DNA of 38,501 bases, from the sequence record OR941417.1, one strand, 5' to 3'. The notes beneath the pieces were generated by a model that saw nothing but the letters and a program-made list of their open reading frames with translations, searched no databases and was not told the origin of the DNA. The position numbers and the translations under genes are program-made. Shown here piece by piece: positions 18,611 to 30,491 of this stretch; the stretch's first letter is position 1, and each line of letters opens with the position of its first letter. This DNA is from Escherichia phage RCF.

Positions 18611-18744
18611 ACCATAGATGACTACAATGGTTGAATCACCTGAGCACAGAACTTTGTGGTCACTCCCGTAGGTGAAACATTGAGAACCAACTCGATTCAA
18701 GTAGTAACCAAACTTTTCTTTAAATCAACATAAGGAGATTCAAC

Positions 18745-19788
18745 ATGGCTAACATTCAAGGCGGACAGCAAATTGGTACTAATCAGGGTAAGGGTCAGTC
18801 CGCAGCGGACAAATTGGCGCTGTTCCTGAAAGTGTTCGGCGGTGAAGTCCTGACGGCTTTCGCTCGCACCTCCGTGACCATGCCTCGTCACATGCTGCGC
18901 TCTATTGCTTCTGGTAAGTCCGCACAGTTCCCTGTGATTGGTCGCACCAAAGCTGCTTACCTGAAACCGGGTGAGAACCTCGATGACAAACGTAAGGATA
19001 TCAAACACACCGAGAAGGTAATCCACATTGATGGGCTGCTGACTGCGGACGTTCTGATTTACGACATTGAGGACGCGATGAACCACTATGACGTTCGCGC
19101 CGAGTACACCGCACAGTTGGGTGAATCTCTGGCGATGGCAGCGGATGGTGCTGTTCTGGCTGAACTGGCTGGTCTGGTTAACCTGCCTGACGCCTCCAAT
19201 GAGAACATTGAGGGTCTCGGTAAGCCGACCGTTCTGGAACTCGTTAAGCCGACCTCTGGCGACCTGACTGACCCGGTTGAGCTGGGTAAAGCGATTATCG
19301 CTCAGTTGACCGTTGCTCGTGCGGCTCTGACCAAGAACTACGTTCCGGCTGCTGACCGTACTTTCTACACCACTCCTGATAACTACTCCGCGATTCTGGC
19401 TGCTCTGATGCCGAACGCTGCAAACTATCAGGCACTGATTGACCCTGAGCGCGGTACTATCCGTAACGTGATGGGCTTCGAAGTGGTTGAGGTTCCGCAC
19501 CTGACTGCTGGTGGTGCTGGTGATGACCGTGAGGACACTCCGGCTGGCCAGAAGCACGCTTTCCCGGCGACTTCCAGCACTACCGTTAAGGTTGCTCTGG
19601 ATAACGTTGTTGGCCTGTTCCAGCACCGCTCTGCGGTTGGTACGGTCAAGCTGAAAGACTTGGCTCTGGAGCGCGCTCGTCGTGCGAACTATCAGGCTGA
19701 CCAGATTATCGCTAAGTACGCGATGGGTCACGGCGGTCTGCGTCCAGAAGCTGCTGGCGCTATCGTTCTCCCAAAGGTGTCGGAGTAA
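18745..19788 (+). CDS. 10A: Major capsid protein 10A
   Basis: 347 aa, highly similar to T7 gp10A ([77 protein letters not shown]). Preceded by a long 5' UTR and AAGGAGA RBS. Confidence 0.97.
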   Translation: MANIQGGQQIGTNQGKGQSAADKLALFLKVFGGEVLTAFARTSVTMPRHMLRSIASGKSAQFPVIGRTKAAYLKPGENLDDKRKDIKHTEKVIHIDGLLTADVLIYDIEDAMNHYDVRAEYTAQLGESLAMAADGAVLAELAGLVNLPDASNENIEGLGKPTVLELVKPTSGDLTDPVELGKAIIAQLTVARAALTKNYVPAADRTFYTTPDNYSAILAALMPNAANYQALIDPERGTIRNVMGFEVVEVPHLTAGGAGDDREDTPAGQKHAFPATSSTTVKVALDNVVGLFQHRSAVGTVKLKDLALERARRANYQADQIIAKYAMGHGGLRPEAAGAIVLPKVSE

Positions 19789-20060
19789 TTCCCGACCCCA
19801 CTGGAGTTACTCTTAGTCAGAAGACTATGAGCTTAGACGTTGGGGCTTCTAAAGCCCTGACTTCTACGGTAACTCCGGCTGATGCAGTACAGACAGTGAC
19901 CTTTACGTCTTCCAATGCGAAGATTGCCACGGTCGATGCCTCTGGTACTGTAACTGCTGTGGGCGCTGGCTCCGCTGACATCACTGCGACTACTGTGAAT
20001 GGCCTGACGGCTGTCTGCAAGGTAACTGTGAAAGCAGTAGAGCCTCCCGTAGAAGGCTAA
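18745..20060 (+). CDS. 10B: Minor capsid protein 10B: predicted -1 frameshift product of 10A (slip at CCCAAAG 19770..19776) with a 94-aa C-terminal Ig-like extension
   Basis: The -1 frame is open from 19716 to the TAA at 20058..20060. A canonical X_XXY_YYZ heptamer (C_CCA_AAG) lies 4 codons before the 10A stop. The extension translation ([54 protein letters not shown]) looks like a Big_2 domain. Confidence 0.6.
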
Positions 20061-20099
20061 GGTCTTTACCGGGGATTTACTTTCCTTCATTACTTTATG

Positions 20100-20141
20100 A
20101 ACCCCTTGGGTGCCCTCTGAGGGTATCTGAGGGGTTTTTTT
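20100..20141 (+). terminator. Tphi: Late terminator Tphi: AACCCCTTGGGTGCCCTCTGAGGGTATCTGAGGGGTTTTTTT
   Basis: Long G:U-containing hairpin plus a T7 run after gene 10, resembling T7 Tphi. Confidence 0.85.
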
Positions 20142-20143
20142 GC

Positions 20144-20166
20144 TTTAAACCCTCACTAACAGGAGG
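20144..20166 (+). promoter_or_regulatory. phi11: T3-type phage RNAP promoter variant, TTTAAACCCTCACTAACAGGAGG
   Basis: Consensus match immediately after terminator Tphi; the initiating region doubles as the gene 11 RBS. Confidence 0.8.
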
Positions 20167-20173
20167 TAACATC

Positions 20174-20764
20174 ATGCGCTCTTATGAGATGAACATTGAG
20201 ACCGCAGAAGAGCTATCAGCCGTCAACGATATTCTGGCTTCCATCGGTGAGCCACCAGTATCGACACTTGAGGGTGATGCGAATGCTGACGTTGCGAATG
20301 CTCGACGTGTACTCAATAAGATTAACCGACAGATTCAATCACGAGGATGGACATTCAATATTGAGGAAGGTGTGACTCTTCTACCGGATGCGTTCTCTGG
20401 TATGATTCCATTTAGCTCTGACTACCTGTCCGTAATGGCAACCAGCGGTCAGACCCAATATATCAACCGTGGTGGCTATCTCTATGACCGCTCTGCGAAG
20501 ACAGACAGATTCCCTTCTGGTGTTCAGGTCAACCTGATTCGCCTGAGAGAGTTCGACGAGATGCCAGAGTGCTTCCGAAACTACATCGTTACCAAGGCTT
20601 CCCGTCAGTTCAATAACCGCTTCTTCGGTGCGCCGGAGGTAGACGGAGTGTTGCAGGAAGAGGAGCAGGAAGCGTGGCGTGCGTGCTTCGAATACGAGCT
20701 AGACTACGGTAACTACAACATGCTGGATGGTGACGCATTCACCTCTGGTCTACTTAACCGCTAA
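20174..20764 (+). CDS. 11: Tail tubular protein A
   Basis: 196 aa near-collinear with T7 gp11 ([36 protein letters not shown]). Confidence 0.95.
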
Positions 20765-26528: not shown

Positions 26529-29500
26529 ATGAGCTACGATAAGAACAAACCTAGCGAGTTCGATGGGTTATTTCAAAAAGCGGCAGACAAACATGGGGTC
26601 TCCTATGACCTGCTTCGTAAATTAGCATTCAATGAGTCCAGCTTCAATCCAAAGGCCAAATCACCAACTGGCCCGAAGGGTCTCATGCAGTTCACCAAGG
26701 GTACAGCCACTGCGCTGGGACTCAAGGTAACTGATGCAGACGATGATGACCGCTACAACCCTGAGCTGGCTGTGGATGCAGCCGCTCGCCACCTGAGTGA
26801 CCTCATTCGTAAATACGATGGGGACGAACTTAAGGCAGCCCTAGCGTACAACCAAGGCGAGGGGAGAAATGGTGCCCCTCAGATGCAGGCCTACGACAAA
26901 GGTGATTGGGCCTCAATCTCTGAGGAAGGTCGTAACTATATGCGTAACCTGATTGACGTAGCTAACAGTCCTCGCAAGGGGGACTTGGAGGCGTTTGGCG
27001 GCATCACCCCAAAGGCTAAGGGCATTCCATCGGGGGATGCATTTGCTGGAATCGGGAAGAAGCAGACGGTAGGAACCGACCTGCCGGAGTCAACTGGATT
27101 CAAAGTGGAGGGTAAAGAGCAGAAAGCACCTAACGTGCCTTATGCTAAGGACTTTTGGGAAAAGACTGGAACAACACTGGACGAGTTTAACTCACGCTCT
27201 ACCTTCTTCGGAATTGGAGATGCAACAAGTGCGGAGCTTCACAACTCTGTACTTGGAGTTGCTTTCCGTGCAGCCCGTAGCGACGATGGTTTTGATTTGT
27301 TCAAGGACACCATTACGCCGACTCGCTGGAACAGCCATACGTGGACTCCAGAAGAGTTAGAGCGTATTCGTAAGGAAGTGAAGAACCCATCGTACATCAA
27401 CGTAGTCACTGGAGGCTCTCCTGAGAATCTGGACGCCCTCATTAAGATGGCGAATGACAACTACGAGATGGACGCGCGGTCTGCCGATGCTGGTGTTGGT
27501 GCCAAACTTACTGCTGGTATCGTCGGTGCTGGTGTAGACCCGCTGAGTTACGTGCCGCTAGTAGGCGTAGCCGGGAAGGGTCTCAAGGTGGTTAACAAGG
27601 CTTTCATTGTGGGTACTCAAAGTGCTGGCCTCGCTGTTGCCTCTGAGGGTCTCCGTACATCAATCGCTGGTGGAGAAGCCCACTATGCTGATGCTGCTTT
27701 AGGCGGTCTGATGTTCGGTGCCGGGATGAGTGCAATCAGTGACGCTATCGCCGCTGGTATTCGCCGTTCCCGTGGTACTGAGGTTGTTAATGACTTCGCT
27801 CCTATGGCACACCGATTGGAAGCCCGTGAGACCGCTCTGAACTCTGGCGGTGAAGACCTGACCCGTATGCCTAGCGAGAACCGTGTGTTCGACCGTGAGC
27901 ACGCTGGCGTTGAGTATTCACCTCTGGAGACCGAGCCGGGTGCCGTTGTGTTGCCTCAAGGTCAAATCCTTAGCGACACCAACCCGCTGAACCCTCAGAC
28001 TCTTAGCGAGTTCGAGGCGGTCAACCCTGAGCGCGCCTCTCGTGGTATCTCTTTGGGTGGTTTCACTGAGATTGGCTTGAAGACTCTCCGCTCTGAGAAC
28101 CCGACTGTTCGCTCCATTGCGAGTGACCTTGTGCGTTCTCCGACAGGGATGGAATCAGGCTCTAACGGTAAGTTCGGTGCGACTGCTTCTGATATTAAGG
28201 AGCGGCTCCACGCGAACAATCAGCGCACCTACAATCAGCTTTATGATGCTGTGCGTACTGCGATGAAAGACCCTGAGTTCTCCACTGGCGGTTCCAAGAT
28301 GAGCCGTAAGGAAATCCGACAGGAAATCTACAAGCGTGCAGCCTTGGCGATTGAGCGACCTGAGCTTCAAGCAAACCTGACAAAGGGTGAGCGGAACGTG
28401 ATGAACATCCTCAAGCAGCACTTCGACCTCAAACGTGAAATCATGGAGAACCCGTCAATCTTTGGCAACACCAAGGCGGTCAGTATCTTCCCCGGCTCAC
28501 GCCACAAGGGAACCTACGTGCCAAACGTGTACGACCGCGCAATCAAGATTGAGATGGTTAAGCGCTACGGTAACGATGGATTGCAGCGAGCAATCGCGGA
28601 GTCATGGTTGACGTCTTATCGCGCTCGTCCAGAAGTCAAGGCGAGGGTCGATGAGTACCTGATGGAACTCAATGGTCTCAAATCCGTGCAGGAAGTTACG
28701 CCTGAGATGGTGCAGAAGCACGCGATGGATAAGGCGTATGGTATTTCACACACTGACCAGTTCTCTGCATCCTCTGTCATTGAGGACAACATTGAGGGTC
28801 TGGTCGGTATCGAGAACAACAACTTCTTGGAAGCCCGTAACATGTTCGACAGTGACATGGCGGTGACGCTCCCTGATGGTAACACGTTCTCTGTGAATGA
28901 CCTCCGTACCTATGACATGGCTGAAATTCTGCCTGCATATGACCGACGAGTGGATGGGGACGTTGCAATCATGGGAGGTTCCGGTAAGACTACCAAAGAC
29001 CTGAAAGATGAAATCATGGCGCTGGATAAGCAGTCAGAGGGTAACGGCACACTGAAAGGTGAGGTGGAAGCCCTCAAGGATACCGTGAAGATTCTAACTG
29101 GTCGCGCTCGTAGGAACCCGGAAGGCGCTTGGGGCACAGCCCTGCGCTCCGTCAATGACCTTACGTTCTTCGCTAAGAACGCCTACATGGGTGCGCAGAA
29201 CATTACTGAAATCGCTGGTATGCTGGCTAAAGGTAACGTCTCTGCGATAACTCATGGCATCCCTATGATTAACGATTGGGTCAACCGTGGTAAACCGCTT
29301 CGTGCCTCTGAGATTAAGGAGATACACGGGATGGTGTTCGGTAAGGAACTAGACCAACTAATCCGTCCGGGACGTGAAGACCACGTGCGCCGACTCCGGG
29401 AGTCTACGGACACCAGCGCTGCGGTTGCCAATGTGGTCGGTACGATTCGTTTCGGCACTCAAGAGTTGGCTGCACGCTCTCCTTGGACAATGCTCCTAAA

Positions 29501-30491
29501 CGGAACATCAAACTACATTCTTGATGCTGCCCGTCAGGGTGTGCTTGGGGATGTGGCTGGAGCGGCCCTTGCTGGGAAAGCCTCTAAGTTCGGTAAGGCA
29601 AACTACCTTAAGTCTGCCTCTATCAGCCCTGAGCAGTGGAATGGAATCAAGCAGTTGTTCAGAGACTATGCGACTCGTGGAGAAGACGGTAAGTTCACCA
29701 TTCGTGACAAACAGGCTTTCGCTAACGACCCACGCTCAATGGACTTGTGGCGTCTGGCTGACAAGGTGGCTGATGAGACTATACTTCGTCCACACAAGGT
29801 TTCCTCACAGGATGCCAAGGCATACGGTGCCGGAGTTAAGATGGTGATGCAGTTTAAGAACTTCGTCATCAAGTCCCTGAACTCCCGGTTTGTCCGTAGC
29901 TTCTACGAGGCAACGAAGAACAACCGAGCGTTAGACCAAGCGTTGACTCATATCATCTCTTTGGGTCTAGCTGGTGGTTACTACGTTGGGCAGGCACACC
30001 TTAAGGCTGCAAGTCTACAGGAGCACAAACGTAAGGAGTACCTTAAGAACGCCCTTGACCCTAAGATGATTGCTCATGCGTCAATCTCTCGTAGTTCACA
30101 CTTAGGCTCACCATTGAGTATCTACGACATGTTCGCTGGTATGGTTGGTAGCGATACCTATAAGTACACCCGCTCTACGGTGCTCCCTAAAGAGTCCGAG
30201 AAGCGTGACCCTAACAAGGCAGTGACAGGTAGGCAGGTGGCTTCAACTATCGCAGGTGCAGTTGGTGAGCAGGTTCCGGGTTTAGGTTTTGTTGGCTCTG
30301 TTGGTGCAACAGCTATTAACGCCGCTTCCCTGCTGTCTTCTCCGAACAAGGCTACCGCTCTGGAGTTCCGTACAGGACTCTTCAACACCTCTCGTGAGTT
30401 GATTCCTAATGACCCGCTATCACAGCAACTCATTATGAAAATCTACGAGGCCAACGGTATCCGCATAAAGGAGACGCCGAAGAAACAATAA
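26529..30491 (+). CDS. 16: Internal virion (core) protein D with N-terminal lytic transglycosylase domain
   Basis: 1320 aa; the N-terminus (LLRKLAFNESSFNPKAKSPTGPKGLMQFTKGTA) fits a soluble lytic transglycosylase motif as in T7 gp16. Confidence 0.93.
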   Translation: MSYDKNKPSEFDGLFQKAADKHGVSYDLLRKLAFNESSFNPKAKSPTGPKGLMQFTKGTATALGLKVTDADDDDRYNPELAVDAAARHLSDLIRKYDGDELKAALAYNQGEGRNGAPQMQAYDKGDWASISEEGRNYMRNLIDVANSPRKGDLEAFGGITPKAKGIPSGDAFAGIGKKQTVGTDLPESTGFKVEGKEQKAPNVPYAKDFWEKTGTTLDEFNSRSTFFGIGDATSAELHNSVLGVAFRAARSDDGFDLFKDTITPTRWNSHTWTPEELERIRKEVKNPSYINVVTGGSPENLDALIKMANDNYEMDARSADAGVGAKLTAGIVGAGVDPLSYVPLVGVAGKGLKVVNKAFIVGTQSAGLAVASEGLRTSIAGGEAHYADAALGGLMFGAGMSAISDAIAAGIRRSRGTEVVNDFAPMAHRLEARETALNSGGEDLTRMPSENRVFDREHAGVEYSPLETEPGAVVLPQGQILSDTNPLNPQTLSEFEAVNPERASRGISLGGFTEIGLKTLRSENPTVRSIASDLVRSPTGMESGSNGKFGATASDIKERLHANNQRTYNQLYDAVRTAMKDPEFSTGGSKMSRKEIRQEIYKRAALAIERPELQANLTKGERNVMNILKQHFDLKREIMENPSIFGNTKAVSIFPGSRHKGTYVPNVYDRAIKIEMVKRYGNDGLQRAIAESWLTSYRARPEVKARVDEYLMELNGLKSVQEVTPEMVQKHAMDKAYGISHTDQFSASSVIEDNIEGLVGIENNNFLEARNMFDSDMAVTLPDGNTFSVNDLRTYDMAEILPAYDRRVDGDVAIMGGSGKTTKDLKDEIMALDKQSEGNGTLKGEVEALKDTVKILTGRARRNPEGAWGTALRSVNDLTFFAKNAYMGAQNITEIAGMLAKGNVSAITHGIPMINDWVNRGKPLRASEIKEIHGMVFGKELDQLIRPGREDHVRRLRESTDTSAAVANVVGTIRFGTQELAARSPWTMLLNGTSNYILDAARQGVLGDVAGAALAGKASKFGKANYLKSASISPEQWNGIKQLFRDYATRGEDGKFTIRDKQAFANDPRSMDLWRLADKVADETILRPHKVSSQDAKAYGAGVKMVMQFKNFVIKSLNSRFVRSFYEATKNNRALDQALTHIISLGLAGGYYVGQAHLKAASLQEHKRKEYLKNALDPKMIAHASISRSSHLGSPLSIYDMFAGMVGSDTYKYTRSTVLPKESEKRDPNKAVTGRQVASTIAGAVGEQVPGLGFVGSVGATAINAASLLSSPNKATALEFRTGLFNTSRELIPNDPLSQQLIMKIYEANGIRIKETPKKQ

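Follow-up and report, generated by a model that had tools for sequence, protein, structure and literature searches.

Genomic context of gene 10

The DNA analysed here, referred to as the window, is a stretch of 38,501 nucleotides from Escherichia phage RCF (OR941417.1). The region of interest within it is the gene 9, gene 10, T-phi and gene 11 block of a T7-group podophage. The major capsid gene and its boundaries are defined by the following features:

18732..18737, plus strand: Shine-Dalgarno (SD) sequence of gene 10, AAGGAG, found by sequence; its anti-SD duplex for the start at 18745 has an energy of -9.3 kcal/mol
18745..19788, plus strand: gene 10A, major capsid protein of 347 aa and 36.9 kDa in the 0 frame, from the list of open reading frames (ORFs) and from Pfam and PDB matches
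20099..20147, plus strand: T-phi-type intrinsic terminator after gene 10, an 18-pair stem followed by a T run

Gene 10A starts with the ATG at 18745 and ends with the TAA at 19786-19788. Its product belongs to the Pfam family Gp10A-like (PF21703, E 2.3e-111) and matches the T7-like capsid chains in the PDB with an E-value of 6e-181. The flanking genes are those found in T3 and phiYeO3-12, comprising the scaffold, tail tube A and T-phi, and the terminator at 20099..20147 corresponds to the T-phi annotated in both of these phages.

The close relatives of the window belong to the genus Teetrevirus (the T3 group). The DNA of gene 10 is 98-99% identical to that of Enterobacter phage KNP3, Klebsiella phages IME305 and Patroon, Yersinia phage phiYe-F10 and Citrobacter phage SH2, and a 24-kb stretch of the window shares 96.8% identity with Klebsiella phages Bobalons and GlastosBack. 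Gene 10A is also 95.9% identical at the DNA level to its counterpart in phiYeO3-12 over the part that aligns. A proteomic study of the closely related Citrobacter phages analysed SH1, a phage without the C-terminal extension described below, and not SH2.

Slippery heptamer and the -1 reading frame

Shortly before the end of gene 10A, a second open frame departs from the first:

19770..19776, plus strand: slippery heptamer C_CCA_AAG, putative -1 frameshift site, with the P-site codon changing from CCA to CCC and the A-site codon from AAG to AAA
19776..20060, plus strand: 10B-specific extension in the -1 frame, 94 codons and a stop, from translation

Read in the 10A frame, the site is CT[C CCA AAG] followed by GTG TCG GAG TAA, with the heptamer located 16 nt ahead of the 10A stop codon. 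From the GGT at 19776 to the TAA at 20058-20060, the -1 frame is open, and the encoded peptide ends in ...VEPPVEG. A sequence-only reading of the window had placed an in-frame CCCAAAG at 19770..19776, four codons before the 10A stop, followed by a -1 frame open to 20060 and encoding 94 additional residues. The sequence and its translation bear this out, including the peptide motif quoted in that reading. The shifted product, 10B, would consist of residues 1-344 of 10A and the 94 residues of the extension, giving 438 aa with a computed mass of 45.6 kDa, in line with the fused capsid species of about 45 kDa that the same reading had anticipated.

Heptamers of the X_XXY_YYZ type are short, and their chance occurrence was assessed by counting those lying in frame in the 29 long plus-strand ORFs of the window. 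There are 16 such heptamers. The one at the end of gene 10A is followed by 94 open codons in the -1 frame, compared to 17 for the next best and a median of 7. Furthermore, only 0.43% of all in-frame positions are followed by at least 94 open -1 codons. Given this length, the distance to the next best heptamer and the rarity of such positions, the arrangement is far from what chance would produce. The heptamer is common to all T3-type relatives fetched, including variants in which the 0-frame stop is shifted. According to a review, C_CCA_AAG shifts very readily in E. coli, where AAA is a better pairing partner than AAG for the single tRNA-Lys (PMC5009743). Inspection of the sequence upstream of the heptamer revealed no SD-like motif.

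A one-base offset between two coding regions is typical of homopolymer sequencing error, and the change of frame might be attributed to an indel introduced during sequencing or assembly, or to slippage of RNA polymerase rather than of the ribosome. However, the same offset is found in dozens of independently sequenced genomes, including the Sanger-era genomes of T3 and phiYeO3-12, and the A run at the site is only three bases long, whereas transcriptional slippage is known from much longer runs. We regard both of these explanations as extremely improbable.

The extension as an Ig-like domain

Most of the extension is covered by a single predicted domain:

19800..20021, plus strand: Big_2 (bacterial Ig-like group 2) domain, residues 9-82 of the extension, from Pfam, PHROG and structure-sequence matches

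The sequence-only reading had recognised a pattern of bacterial Ig-like group 2 domains in the extension, and a Pfam search assigns it to Big_2 (PF02368; 58.2 bits, gathering cut-off 22.8, E 7.8e-16), the match spanning profile positions 3-78 of 79. The extension also matches PHROG 215, annotated as "structural protein with Ig domain" (E 1.2e-26), and, by sequence, the Big_2 domains of solved structures (best E 6e-9). A single-sequence AlphaFold2 model of the extension has six beta strands and no helix, at a pLDDT of 50.6, which does not suffice for a fold search. The Ig fold of the extension is consequently predicted from sequence profiles. A protein homologue search using the extension as a query returned four proteins, and every one of these is an orphan-ORF call.

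Start codons, linker and the question of a separate gene

The domain does not coincide with the ORF that gene callers report, as is apparent from two further features:

19776..19826, plus strand: linker of 17 codons without ATG, GTG or TTG, upstream of the first ATG in the -1 frame
19827..20060, plus strand: 77-aa "small gene" of ORF callers, probably an artefact of the overlooked frameshift

As the sequence-only reading had expected, ORF callers report 19827..20060 separately, and the databases hold orphan ORFs of 54-77 aa at this position. The Ig-like domain may on these grounds be taken for the product of a separate 77-aa gene, translated either from its own ATG or by re-initiation 39 nt past the 10A stop, with a product that decorates the capsid non-covalently or stays free. 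An ATG-to-stop ORF is indeed present, its ATG is conserved in T3, in Pseudomonas phage Pf-10 and in the window, and many records annotate it as "minor capsid protein 10B", "hypothetical protein" or "structural protein with Ig domain". In addition, stand-alone Ig-like capsid decoration proteins are known in T7-like phages, e.g. Peru-2 (PMC13320782).

Several observations speak against a separate gene. A stand-alone decoration protein of this kind, such as T4 Hoc or P2_50 of Peru-2, has its own start and a complete domain, whereas the ORF at 19827 has no SD sequence and encodes a truncated domain. The anti-SD duplex at this ATG has an energy of +0.2 kcal/mol, a value that 85% of the window's ATG triplets equal or beat, versus a median of -8.45 kcal/mol for the genes of the window. 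The paper describing SH2 gives the same "RBS" (TCAGAAGACtATG) for the small ORF, and the neighbouring genes have the canonical AAGGAG. The ATG is the only one in the extension and encodes residue 18 (Met18), although the Big_2 match already begins at residue 9. When translation is started at 19827, the match begins at profile position 13, and positions 1-12 are lost together with the first strand. From 19716 to 19826 the -1 frame is devoid of ATG, GTG and TTG, and an upstream stop is located just before 19716, leaving the first strand and the 17-codon linker unreachable by start codons. The conserved methionine is an internal residue of a conserved peptide, SQKTM.

The linker itself is under strong purifying selection. 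Its peptide is identical in T3 and phiYeO3-12, and compared to Pf-10 it shows 9.5 synonymous and 1.5 nonsynonymous differences as well as one in-frame codon deletion. For the whole extension, the pN/pS ratio in the -1 frame is 0.42 against T3 and 0.32 against Pf-10. Selection thus acts on the -1 peptide starting with the very first codon past the heptamer.

Natural variants point to the same site. In one of them (L007), two substitutions directly behind the heptamer leave the -1 peptide (GVGVI) unchanged and create an earlier stop in the 0 frame. In another (L008), a 15-nt deletion places a TGA immediately after CCA AAG, and the -1 frame is still open. The heptamer is intact in both. In the Pseudomonas phages Pf-10 and Kriimani, where synonymous change is nearly saturated, the homology in the -1 frame begins at the Lys codon of A_AAG. 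Five independent lines of evidence, i.e. a domain that begins before the ATG, the lack of a start codon, the lack of an SD sequence, the selection on the linker and the variants, taken together imply that the shift must occur at the heptamer. A separate gene for the Ig-like domain is considered very unlikely.

A different explanation is that the Ig module landed out of frame in a recombination event and that the heptamer with its open -1 frame is only a tolerated remnant, slippage being adventitious, or too rare to matter, or its product functionless. The close relatives SH1, VAC1 and AP5 lack the Ig module, and whether such a module lands in or out of frame may, according to a review, be a matter of chance (PMC5009743). 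Furthermore, gp10B is dispensable for laboratory growth of both T7 and T3 (PMC3276506). A mere leftover is, however, difficult to reconcile with an intact module whose pN/pS is 0.3-0.4 across two genera and with a linker whose conservation sets in at the codon directly following the slip site. The heptamer has also been retained while flanking bases change, and the arrangement is present in about 40 phage records at 90% or higher protein identity, and in about 100 at 60% or higher. A functionless leftover therefore seems most improbable, and a programmed frameshift at the heptamer is the reading followed below.

Downstream RNA structure

Frameshifting may be stimulated by RNA structure downstream of the slip site, and folding revealed one candidate close to the heptamer:

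19782..19813, plus strand: candidate stimulator hairpin of 11 bp, 19782-19792 paired with 19803-19813, from folding

The hairpin starts 5 nt after the heptamer and has a predicted energy of -14.0 kcal/mol (z -2.6), with 4 of 200 shuffled sequences folding as well. Both its spacing and its strength would suit a stimulator. The sequence-only reading had proposed a 6-bp stem in this role, formed by GAGTAA at 19783-19788 and TTACTC at 19807-19812. These arms are present and make up the outer part of the 11-bp helix; a role as stimulator is plausible only, as the hairpin is not conserved. The equivalent hairpin in T3 is weaker (8 pairs, -8.7 kcal/mol, z -0.6), the variant with the 15-nt deletion (L008) has lost the 5' arm, and Pf-10 has no equivalent hairpin.

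When 104 nt are folded, the 3' arm of the hairpin takes other partners. Folds of this length show unusual stability both for the window (z -4.9) and for the T3 allele (z -3.6), and have similar multibranch shapes. An RNAalifold analysis of six sequences, representing three allele types only, gave an unfavourable covariation term of +2.67, leaving no net support from covariation. On the sequences compared, neither the 6-bp stem nor the larger multibranch fold can count as a conserved stimulator. An Rfam scan of positions 19600-20250 identified no frameshift element, and returned one sub-threshold chance match on the terminator. In T7, a distant element located in T-phi contributes to frameshifting, which is affected by a CCCC in the terminator (PMC5009743).

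Comparison with known frameshift systems

The closest characterised systems are those of T3 and phiYeO3-12. The heptamer and the 36 nt downstream of it are identical to the window in both phages, and the 60 nt upstream differ at a single base (T/G) located 6 nt before the heptamer. T3 has the same genus-level backbone and the same position of the site, 16 nt before the 10A stop. The record of phiYeO3-12 notes "ribosome slippage ... -1 frameshift" at the equivalent bases, and the RefSeq record of T3 does likewise. The T3 extension is also a Pfam Big_2 domain (E 2.5e-10), although it represents a different allele of the module, with 67% aa identity and a length of 89 aa compared to 94 aa in the window. 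The similarity to T3 and phiYeO3-12 at the DNA level drops from about position 19812 onward, and a spacer of about 175 nt located between the 10B stop and T-phi in these two phages is missing from the window.

The T3 system is well described. The T3 gp10B is 86 residues longer than gp10A and is found in particles (PMC3276506). A review from 2016 describes the extension of the T3 coat protein as Ig-like and produced by -1 frameshifting, whereas its T7 counterpart is "curiously" not Ig-like (PMC5009743), and the same contrast between T3 10B and T7 is drawn elsewhere (PMC13320782). T3 and phiYeO3-12 slip at lysyl codons, and phages of the T7 type at poly-U (PMC2579914).

Closer relatives carry the allele of the window itself. 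In Klebsiella phage Patroon (MK608335), the same Big_2 allele differs by one amino acid and is annotated as a joined CDS, "major capsid protein, Frame shift product". Patroon, KNP3, phiYe-F10, SH2, IME305 and GlastosBack show no substantive difference to the window, with 98-99% DNA identity in the gene 10 region and extensions that are identical or one to two residues apart. In most of these records the extension is wrongly annotated, either as a small gene of its own or as a "major tail protein".

T7 also produces a C-terminally extended minor capsid protein by shifting to the -1 frame 16 nt ahead of its 10A stop. Its heptamer is, however, G_GUU_UUC, with slippage on tRNA-Phe, whereas the window would slip on tRNA-Lys. 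The T7 extension consists of 56 codons in the -1 frame, is rich in Ala, Lys and Arg, and is predicted to be non-Ig. The earlier expectation that the T7 10B extension is shorter and lacks an Ig fold agrees with these 56 codons compared to 94, and no Pfam match was obtained for the extension of a close T7-type homologue (L058). The T7-type extensions are not homologous to that of the window, and the hallmarks of a T7-type 10B, i.e. G_GUU_UUC, a short basic non-Ig extension and the motif LTPxQKAARTRAANKA, do not describe what is found there.

In the Pseudomonas Pifdecavirus phages Pf-10 and Kriimani, the junction peptide is homologous to that of the window, and the first Big_2 domain is about 60% identical. 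Their site reads C_GAA_AAG, where good re-pairing is possible only for the A-site tRNA. Pf-10 carries two Big_2 domains, and Kriimani a Big_2 domain together with a GDSL hydrolase domain and roughly 200 additional residues. Neither module is annotated as a frameshift product. Frameshifting also adds a C-terminal Ig-like domain to a fraction of the protein in the capsid of Lactobacillus phage A2 and in the Listeria phages A118, A500 and PSA (PMC5009743). Those systems involve unrelated host proteins and slip sites, and some of them use +1 shifts (PMC5009743).

Proposed expression of gene 10 and its implications

The identity of the site and its surroundings with T3, the Big_2 domain and the selection on the -1 peptide strongly suggest that gene 10 of the window is subject to the programmed -1 ribosomal frameshift known as 10A/10B in T3-type (Teetrevirus) phages, by which a predicted Big_2 domain is fused to the capsid protein. 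The sequence-only reading had arrived at the same shift at CCCAAAG and the same fusion of an Ig-like domain to the capsid protein, and both the sequence and the comparative evidence support it. It is an already known system and its occurrence in the window is a confirmation rather than a discovery; it departs from T3 only in having another allele of the Ig module and less spacer DNA ahead of T-phi. A literature search on Ig-like capsid domains in Teetrevirus gave no match.

According to the proposed mechanism, most ribosomes would read gene 10 to the TAA and produce the 347-aa 10A. A minority would pause at C_CCA_AAG with tRNA-Pro on CCA and tRNA-Lys on AAG, and both tRNAs would then move back by one base, re-pairing with CCC and AAA. 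Translation would resume in the -1 frame at the GGT at 19776 and end at the TAA at 20058-20060. The resulting 10B is predicted to comprise the HK97-fold capsid body in full (residues 1-344), joined through a short Pro-rich linker (GVGVIPDP) to a single Big_2 domain. That the shifted protein is made and present in virions is assumed by analogy with the literature on T3 and phiYeO3-12. By co-assembly with 10A, 10B would allow a fraction of the capsid subunits to expose an Ig-like domain at the outer surface of the head. The most likely role of this domain, inferred for the allele of the window, is weak binding to carbohydrate on cell surfaces or in mucus.

Phage RCF would thereby be one more T3-type phage in which some of the capsid subunits display an Ig-like domain. 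A role of the domain in retention in mucus or polysaccharide is plausible, and is a predicted one for this allele. Such retention could matter for phage-therapy candidates directed against Klebsiella, Enterobacter and Yersinia.

The comparison also exposes a widespread annotation error. Most records of this allele split the extension off as an orphan gene of 54-77 aa, and in several it appears as "major tail protein" or "hypothetical protein". The correct feature would be a joined CDS, 18745..19776 and 19776..20060, encoding the 438-aa minor capsid protein 10B.

The cargo found behind the capsid gene varies among the T7-group phages compared. It may be a single Big_2 domain, in one of two alleles that are 67% identical (the window type and the T3 type), two Big_2 domains, a Big_2 domain with a GDSL hydrolase, or the basic helix of the T7 type. 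The junction preceding it, K-GV(G/S)V(I)..., is conserved in both Teetrevirus and the Pseudomonas Pifdecavirus. One may speculate that the -1 slot behind the capsid gene is a "display cassette" exchangeable by recombination across T7-group genera, that the allele of the window arrived in this way with a breakpoint near 19812-19834, and that its stronger hairpin might set a 10B:10A ratio different from that of T3. This proposal is tentative, and we consider it somewhat more likely to be wrong than right. If true, the conserved junction could be both a flexible linker and a recombination joint.

Apparent exchange of capsid extension modules

The DNA of the window is ~96% similar to that of T3 and phiYeO3-12 (comparison sequences L003 and L084) across 10A, the major capsid protein gene, and the linker, with a steep loss of similarity past ~19812–19834 (region compared, ~19812–20098). 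Furthermore, the ~175 nt found between the 10B stop and the terminator T-phi in T3 and phiYeO3-12 are missing from the window. There looks to be a recombination breakpoint directly 3' of the conserved linker in the window.

An exchange of modules is seen in a Klebsiella phage of the same T3-group genus, Teetrevirus:

L088 1626–1784: extension region of Klebsiella phage vB_KpnP-VAC1, MZ428229

At the position equivalent to the slip site of the window, VAC1 carries an imperfect heptamer, G_CCA_AAG, followed by a basic T7-type extension (…LTPQQKAAITRARNKALKSQQ) in place of the Ig module; C-terminal modules have therefore been swapped inside the genus. AP5, phiSG-JL2 and SH1 seemingly resemble VAC1 or lack the module entirely.

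In Pseudomonas phages of Pifdecavirus, represented by two regions, the capsid gene ends in ...ATC GAA AAG GCG TAA, and the -1 frame at A_AAG yields the same junction peptide as in the window:

L087 1492–2913: -1 ORF region of Pseudomonas phage vB_PpuP-Kriimani, PP496428
L086 1492–2028: -1 ORF region of Pseudomonas phage Pf-10, KP025626

The Kriimani -1 ORF continues for 473 aa past the junction and encodes, in this order, Big_2, a hydrolase domain of the GDSL/SGNH type (match to PF13472 at E 2.3e-9) and ~200 further residues, making its product a possible candidate for a frameshift-made enzyme shown on the capsid. The Pf-10 -1 ORF encodes two Big_2 domains. Both ORFs are entered in their records as separate genes.

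In many T7-group contigs of the Klebsiella KP32-like group (from L011–L082, IMG/VR), the heptamer is G_GTT_TTC and the -1 extension behind it is 96 aa long and beta-rich (…TLYFKGIAVGETLVTVSFDGSERKSFKLVVTN). This extension had no Pfam match and a single PHROG match, 7473, of unknown function, and may represent a third, unclassified type of capsid extension.

Several public records matching the gene 10 region (H6, H7, H11, H20, H34 and H35) carry the automated label "major tail protein" on the extension ORF, likely because Big_2 modules predominate in tail-protein PHROG families, e.g. phrog_341.

RNA folding downstream of the slip site

In both Ig alleles, the 104 nt past the slip site fold far more stably than shuffled controls: none of 200 shuffles was equally stable for the window (19777–19880, z -4.9) or for the T3-type allele (L084 2424–2527, z -3.6). 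The multibranch shape is alike in both, and a strong hairpin spans the codons for VGASKAL or EGASRAL. The equivalent fold of Pf-10 is unremarkable (z -1.2).

C_CCA_AAG also occurs in frame at 27008–27014 of the window, within an ORF of 1320 aa (26529–30491) occupying the position of internal virion protein D. The -1 frame after this heptamer is closed past one codon, slippage there would therefore only truncate the protein.
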